A stretch of DNA of 1,556 nt from Naegleria gruberi (lineage: Eukaryota): the NCBI GenBank assembly GCA_000004985.1, contig GG739383.1. One strand, given 5' to 3'. Shown in pieces: positions 1 to 362 of this stretch (within the stretch, counting starts at the first letter, position 1; each line of letters opens with the position of its first letter). The notes below the pieces were generated by a model. The model saw only the letters and a list, made by a program, of their open reading frames with translations. It had not been told where the DNA came from and ran no database searches. The position numbers were made by a program, and so were the translations under genes.

Positions 1-54
1 GCTAGGGCGTAAGAATCTAATGATTCAAACACCTTTTACCAGGATCAATTGATA
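1..54 (-). other. Very short ITS2-like spacer (~23 nt) followed by a possible LSU 5' terminus, or a direct 5.8S-LSU continuation
   Basis: Minus-strand sequence after the 5.8S-like end (..GTGCTAGTTTTC) is TATCAATTGATCCTGGTAAAAGGT. This is followed by GTTTGAATCATTAGATTCTTACGCCC (plus ~1-31), which loosely resembles the canonical LSU 5' end GTTTGACCTCAAATCAGGTAGGAGTACCCGC. Only ~30 nt are available and the match is weak. Confidence 0.3.
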
Positions 55-207
55 GAAAACTAGCACTCTAACGCAAGTACCTCCGAAGAGGTCCAGTATG
101 TGTTCACCAATTTGATGAATCGCGAGGCTAACGAATCTCATTACATATCGCTTTTTGCCGCGGGCTTCATCGATGCATAAGCCGTGTGCTCCATTGCACA
201 GAGTTTG
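55..207 (-). rRNA. 5.8S-like rRNA segment (or 5.8S-homologous 5' end of LSU), divergent
   Basis: The minus strand contains the 5.8S hallmark GCATCGATGAAG (plus 165-176), followed by GCGATATGTAATGAGATTCG..GATTCATC..GGTGAACACATACTGG. This parallels canonical GCGATACGTAATGTGAATTGCAGAATTCAGTGAATCATCGAATCTTTGAACGCACATTG. Upstream, CAAACTCTGTGCAATGGAGCACACGG parallels AAACTTTCAACAACGGATCTCTTGG. Length ~153 nt fits 5.8S. The sequence downstream of GCATCGATGAAG diverges from consensus, where AACGCAGCGAAATGCGATA has become CCCGCGGCAAAAAGCGATA. Confidence 0.55.
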
Positions 208-239
208 GGGGTAAAAAAGGTTTTCACCTTTTTACCAGA
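208..239 (-). other. Internal transcribed spacer 1, ~32 nt, folding as a single A/T-rich hairpin
   Basis: Lies between the SSU 3' end (GGATCATT, plus 240-247) and the start of 5.8S-like similarity (~207). Minus-strand sequence is TCTGGTAAAAAGGTGAAAACCTTTTTTACCCC, with ~10-bp stem GGTAAAAAGG/CCTTTTTTACC and loop TGAAAA. Confidence 0.6.
210..236. repeat. Near-perfect inverted repeat (hairpin) occupying almost all of ITS1
   Basis: Plus-strand arm ggtaaaaaagg (210-220), loop ttttca (221-226), arm cctttttacc (227-236). The arms are complementary apart from one extra A in the left arm. Confidence 0.7.
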
Positions 240-362
240 AATGATCCCTACGCAGGTTCACCTACGAAGACCTTGTTACGACTTTTCCTTCCTACAGACG
301 AAGAGATTTAACTGGTTTCCCTTACCTTGCGGTTCGGTCCGCCAGGTTCATCTCTTCGTCCC

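Follow-up and report, generated by a model that had tools for sequence, protein, structure and literature searches.

Positions 1-247 of the window (the whole stretch of DNA that was analysed, 1556 bases long), read on the minus strand, almost certainly come from the rDNA unit of a Naegleria (Heterolobosea, Vahlkampfiidae): they hold the 3′ end of the SSU rRNA, ITS1, the 5.8S rRNA and the opening 60 nt of the spacer between 5.8S and LSU. The ITS2 of this unit is ordinary in size for the genus and the window simply stops inside it. The near-absence of ITS2, as it appears from the window, comes from that ending.

Layout of the rRNA unit and the start of the LSU rRNA

The whole window was scanned against Rfam 15 with cmscan, which placed the rRNA unit on the minus strand. 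The 3′ two-thirds of the SSU (18S) rRNA, cut at the right end of the window, occupies 239..1556 (−; RF01960 SSU_rRNA_eukarya, 952.8 bits, model 619-1831). This match reaches the last position of the model, 1831, with the SSU 3′ end at window position 239, and the SSU ends in ...GAACCTGCGTAGGGATCATTT, which is exact at 258..239. The canonical part of the 5.8S rRNA, its core, lies at 61..205 (−), where the full RF00002 model (1-154) matched 205..61 with 84.0 bits (gathering score 42) and an E-value of 5.5e-21. As Rfam ends the SSU at 239 and starts the 5.8S at 205, ITS1 is the gap between them, 238..206 (−), and is therefore 33 nt long (CUGGUAAAAAGGUGAAAACCUUUUUUACCCCCA). These boundaries agree to within 1-2 nt with an earlier, sequence-only reading of this DNA, which had put the SSU end at ~240 and the 5.8S start at ~207. 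That reading also had the gene order right, and its 5.8S end at ~55 can be reconciled with the Rfam end at 61, since the 5.8S/LSU helix runs a few nucleotides further. Compared with the Rfam consensus for eukaryotic SSU rRNA, the gene carries an insertion of ~55 nt further upstream, in V4 (window ~1391-1445, −), presumably a lineage-specific expansion.

Beyond the 5.8S match, the scan found no LSU match in the window, even at E ≤ 1. What follows the 5.8S core is a conserved 30-nt tract (GUUUUCUAUCAAUUGAUCCUGGUAAAAGGU, 31..60, −), which the Naegleria literature counts as the last part of its ‘175-bp 5.8S’, and then the segment GTTTGAATCA (21..30, −), which the sequence-only reading had taken for an LSU-like 5′ end starting ~23 nt after the 5.8S. 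Under the Naegleria convention these same ten bases (30..21) are the first ten of ITS2. Their resemblance to an LSU 5′ end is limited to the hexamer GTTTGA.

Metagenome contigs were scanned with the 20-mer of the SSU 3′ end and gave 38 loci. One contig, L026 (VFQN01005947.1, 14,434 bp), agrees with the window at every one of its 1556 bases (100% identity) and extends past window position 1. Window coordinates become L026 coordinates when 11548 is added, which makes window position 1 L026 11549. On this contig the 5.8S model ends at 11609, and a full-length Rfam match to LSU_rRNA_eukarya runs from 11461 to 8006 (2364.5 bits, model 1-3401). Since window position 1 is L026 11549 and LSU model position 1 is L026 11461, the LSU starts 88 nt outside the window, beyond position 1. 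The gap between the 5.8S model end and the LSU model start is 147 nt. At the real LSU start the contig reads ...AAACTGGCCTCTAATGTGAGAGGGTACCCCCTGGATTTAAGCATATTAATAAGGGGAGGAAAAGAAA, which contains the target of the reverse ITS primer, and ACCCCCTGGATTTAAGCATATTAATAAGGGGAGGAAAAG follows the LSU model start. Rfam annotates on L026 one SSU, a single 5.8S and one LSU as a unit. Its ITS2 is 147 nt long if the Rfam model sets the end of the 5.8S, and 117 nt long with the 175-bp 5.8S convention. There is no fused 5.8S–LSU: a separate 5.8S is followed by a structured 147-nt spacer. An ITS2 of ~23 nt, or none, as the sequence-only reading had it, does not survive this extension, and region 1-54 of the window proves to belong to a long ITS2 and to have no relation to the start of the LSU.

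The position of the LSU start is matched by its predicted pairing with the 5.8S. RNAduplex paired the 3′ segment of the 5.8S (window ~84..56) with the real LSU start on L026 at -33.1 kcal/mol; as modelled, this duplex is the canonical 5.8S/LSU helix, as in other eukaryotes. In one relative, L002, the 5.8S motif GCUAG has become GUCAG (a CU-to-UC swap), and pairing with the LSU motif CUGGC is kept.

Folding and conservation of the spacers

ITS1 is predicted to be almost entirely one GAAA-capped hairpin of conserved structure. The MFE fold places it at 210..236 (−), with 11 bp, one bulged U and the GAAA tetraloop, in keeping with the earlier description of a ~32-nt ITS1 formed by a single hairpin. 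Its folding energy was -10.9 kcal/mol (z -2.85), and 3/200 shuffles folded equally well. The ITS1 variants of relatives were folded one by one; a MAFFT alignment put indels in the A-run and the U-run out of register with the hairpin. An equivalent hairpin was predicted in all of the distinct variants (7/7, z -2.9 to -4.9), and its recurrence in seven distinct ITS1 sequences is why we regard the structure as conserved. Individual variants also show how the stem is maintained: in L009 the inner pairs GGU/ACC are replaced by AGC/GCU, which is compensatory, in L001 two A→G changes on the 3′ arm keep G–U pairs, and in L002 the stem is longer. The hairpin may reasonably be taken to carry processing information, as had been suggested earlier.

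The 5.8S–LSU spacer of L026 folded with an MFE of -41.9 kcal/mol into three helices: helix I, most of which lies within the window, helix II, which is short, and a distal one. Helix I (1..42, −) is predicted to be a nested, three-part hairpin. Its outer pairing joins CUGGU (42..38) to GCCGG, of which only GC (2..1) is inside the window, its middle pairing joins GGUGU (33..29) to ACGCC (10..6), and its apical pairing joins GAAUC (26..22) to GAUUC (17..13) around the loop AUUA (21..18). The segment once read as LSU-like would then be the 5′ arm of the apical hairpin, and the conserved 30-nt tract, in structural terms, a single-stranded lead-in followed by the 5′ strands of helix I. Independent folds recovered the same nested helix I in 7/9 relatives. 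In L002, the outer pairs are CUCUG/CAGAG instead of CUGGU/GCCGG.

Pair counting over the ITS2 alignment (A2) pointed the same way. The predicted partners were paired in 91.9% of cells, compared to at most 49.5% when the partners were slid, and four ITS2 pairs were changed on both sides. The covariation score was 0.187, compared to no more than 0.069 for slid partners. The shuffle control was beaten moderately, with 19-43/500 shuffles reaching the observed values, as expected because there are only 9 distinct, closely related sequences.

Conservation was measured segment by segment as the mean pairwise identity among 9 distinct, aligned Naegleria-like loci. It was 98.1% in the 5.8S core, 95.1% in window 60..31, 73.6% in window 30..1 and 41.6% in the rest of the 5.8S–LSU spacer, before rising to 98.7% in the 30 nt of the true LSU 5′ end. 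As window 30..1 is at 73.6% and the true LSU 5′ end at 98.7%, 30..1 evolves as a spacer. When L002 was added, invariant columns made up 53% of the tract 60..31 and 90% of the 5.8S core.

Length differences among the relatives were confined to the distal ITS2 helix. Two sets of loci that are 97.5-98% identical to the window over its length (L006/L005/L027/L032 and L033/L034) have an ITS2 enlarged by insertions, of ~70 and ~110 nt. The insertions too are restricted to the distal helix, with helices I and II unchanged, and they agree with the use of ITS2 length to distinguish Naegleria species. The predicted fold shares with the canonical eukaryotic ITS2 several helices enclosed by the 5.8S/LSU pairing; the second of them is short and conserved, and length variation is taken up by the distal one. 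In Naegleria and related vahlkampfiids, helix II has been described as present, with no recognisable standard helix III, so that Naegleria is listed as having an ITS2, if one with an atypical helix III (Coleman 2007, PMC1904279).

The 3′ end of 5.8S rRNA and the duplicated motif

Where does the mature 5.8S rRNA end? We consider a canonical 3′ end, near position 56, to be the probable answer, from the structural models. The other candidate, which we regard as possible but distinctly the less favoured, is that the mature Naegleria 5.8S is ~175 nt long and ends at 31, so that the 30-nt tract is a retained 3′ extension and ITS2 is 117 nt. Other Discoba, for example trypanosomatids, have 5.8S rRNAs of ~170 nt, which counts for the longer form, as does the near rRNA-level conservation of the tract in the genus-level set, where its identity is close to that of the 5.8S core and well above that of the next 30 nt (95.1% against 98.1% and 73.6%). 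The 175-bp figure is also consistent across the literature (PMC3167841). However, the Rfam 5.8S model stops at 61, and the 5.8S/LSU helix, which normally defines the 5.8S 3′ end, finishes at ~56. Within the tract, moreover, CUGGU (42..38) pairs with the downstream spacer in the predicted fold, and this pairing survives sequence changes, including its full replacement in L002; a 3′ end at 31 would therefore fall within helix I. The conservation of the tract also drops well below that of the 5.8S core once L002 is included (53% against 90% invariant columns). No experimental 5.8S ends for Naegleria turned up in the literature searched. The conventional 175-bp boundary crosses a covarying, ITS2-type helix, and the annotated 5.8S could be ~25-30 nt too long.

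The tract also shares a motif with ITS1. The window has exactly two copies of CUGGUAAAA(A)GGUG, at 238..225 and 42..30 (−), whereas 0/200 shuffles gave two copies. The first copy lies at the very start of ITS1 and the second 18 nt past the 5.8S model end; each is the 5′ arm of a hairpin. Eleven related loci likewise have two copies in each rDNA unit. One way to read this duplication is that the 3′ arm of the ITS1 hairpin pairs with the ITS2 copy, so that a processing stem would bracket the 5.8S, in principle like the rRNA processing stems of bacteria and archaea. We think this very unlikely. The recurrence of the motif, both in the window and in the 11 relatives, is in its favour, and the ITS1 arm and ITS2 copy of Naegleria-like loci had predicted duplex energies of -8 to -16 kcal/mol, calculated as for an intermolecular pairing. 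Cognate pairs, however, were no better than non-cognate ones (-10.75 compared to -9.84 kcal/mol), and in L002 the potential is lost (-4.9) though both local hairpins persist. In L009 the ITS1 arms change in a compensatory way while the ITS2 copy is unchanged, and the local hairpins account for the conservation. As the main structure the bracketing stem was rejected, for the lack of any advantage of cognate over non-cognate pairs and for its loss in L002. A different proposal keeps the 5.8S end at ~56, with ~25-30 nt of ITS2 included in the ‘175-bp 5.8S’, and has the tract and the duplicated CUGGUAAAA(A)GGUG act as a shared recognition or alternative-pairing element that coordinates the processing of the minimal 33-nt ITS1 and of helix I; this, too, seems unlikely, if slightly less so than the stem.

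Processing might run as follows. The pre-rRNA would first be separated by an endonuclease that cuts within the ITS1 hairpin or beside it. Maturation of the 18S 3′ end, at the conserved GGAUCAUUU, would follow, together with exonucleolytic trimming of the 5.8S 5′ end. The 5.8S 3′ end would be generated by a cut in ITS2 followed by 3′-5′ trimming back to the 5.8S/LSU helix near ~56. The 30-nt tract and helix I could serve as an ITS2-proximal platform for assembly and processing.

Lineage and the surrounding rDNA element

The last 20-21 nt of the SSU are, letter for letter, the ITS forward primer for Naegleria and Vahlkampfiidae, and in a text search of the literature this 20-mer occurred in 27 papers, without exception on Naegleria and vahlkampfiid amoebae. 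Among the loci recovered with it, some are 97.5-98.9% identical to the window (L017, L008, L006, L034, L033, L032, L027 and L005) and others 94-96% (L036, L001, L009 and L020). The same 20-nt SSU 3′ end is also found in loci with a much longer, unrelated ITS1 (L003, L004, L007, L010, L014-L016, L019, L023-L025, L028-L031, L037 and L038). The SSU identity of these loci to the window was ~74-84% where blastn matched, and blastn of the window gave no match above the cutoff for L003, L010 and L038. They are presumably other heteroloboseans. Because loci with diverse ITS regions share the 20-nt primer motif, it is a family-level marker rather than a genus-specific one.

A further marker lies on L026, outside the window. 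A GIR1 branching ribozyme was found at 14242..14046 (−; 202.7 bits, gathering score 100), and the adjoining ORF at 14079..13315 (254 aa) was identified as a His-Cys box homing endonuclease (PF05551, 127.5 bits). Comparison of this intron ORF with solved structures gave no match. Together, ribozyme and ORF indicate that the SSU rDNA carries a twin-ribozyme intron of group I, upstream of the part of the SSU that lies in the window. Such introns, combining GIR1 with a His-Cys box ORF in SSU rDNA, are present in some Naegleria species and rare elsewhere, and are a hallmark of Naegleria.

The spacer lengths are those of the genus. Most Naegleria species have an ITS1 of 33 bp, a 5.8S of 175 bp and an ITS2 of 92 to 113 bp and longer (PMC3167841), and the 33 / 175 / 117 nt of the window fit the layout described for Naegleria spp. 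(De Jonckheere 1998 and later, via PMC3167841). Counted from the Rfam start, a 175-nt ‘5.8S’ ends at 31, precisely where variability starts. There is no structural difference from this layout, although Rfam and the 5.8S/LSU helix put the 5.8S 3′ end ~25-30 nt upstream of the convention. The 33-bp ITS1 is thus a known and ordinary character of Naegleria rDNA, already used for species typing.

The sequence-only reading had instead seen in the short spacers the hallmark of a reduced genome, of a microsporidian, a diplomonad or a nucleomorph, with an ITS2 of ~23 nt or none and the LSU starting at GTTTGAATCA (window 30). We give this next to no credence. In its favour, the hexamer GTTTGA resembles the first six bases of yeast 25S rRNA, and the window ends before anything contradicts an LSU start at 30. 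But L026, identical in sequence, has the LSU model start 88 nt outside the window, and 30..1, at 73.6% identity and with a covarying hairpin, is spacer-like; the 5.8S 3′ end is predicted to pair with the distal LSU start and not with 30..1, and the lineage markers are those of Naegleria. Microsporidian, diplomonad and nucleomorph origins were rejected on the primer site, the ITS layout, GIR1 and the PF05551 endonuclease. With the compact rDNA of the microsporidian or Giardia type this unit shares only the very short ITS1. It differs in having a separate 5.8S followed by a structured ITS2 of 117-147 nt and variable length, and in an SSU of normal length with expansions. Giardia and microsporidia have also been set apart from the vahlkampfiids as another class of ITS2 exception (Coleman 2007, PMC1904279). 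The sequence comes from a free-living Naegleria, and a 33-bp ITS1 is the published norm of the genus (PMC3167841). An LSU start should therefore not be read from a motif as short as GTTTGA where a window ends, and very short spacers alone are no sign of a reduced genome.

The rDNA unit is most likely carried on an extrachromosomal rDNA element of ~14 kb, of the kind typical of Naegleria. The circular extrachromosomal rDNA element of N. gruberi EGB is 14,007 bp long (PMC5805870) and that of N. fowleri LEE 15,786 bp (CERE papers: PMC5805870, PMC7714845). L026 is like the Naegleria CERE, or 14-kb rDNA plasmid, in its size, in its single SSU-5.8S-LSU unit and in a repeat-rich non-ribosomal region. 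L026 itself is a metagenome assembly, and the contig stops within or close to the SSU 5′ exon and intron. Its non-ribosomal part, 1-8000, is rich in direct and tandem repeats. These include a tandem array of 119-bp units at 5622-6335, direct repeats of 174-300 nt that lie ~1.9-2.1 kb apart, and a G-rich array at 561-644, made of TGGCTGGT-like units with an 8/12-nt periodicity.
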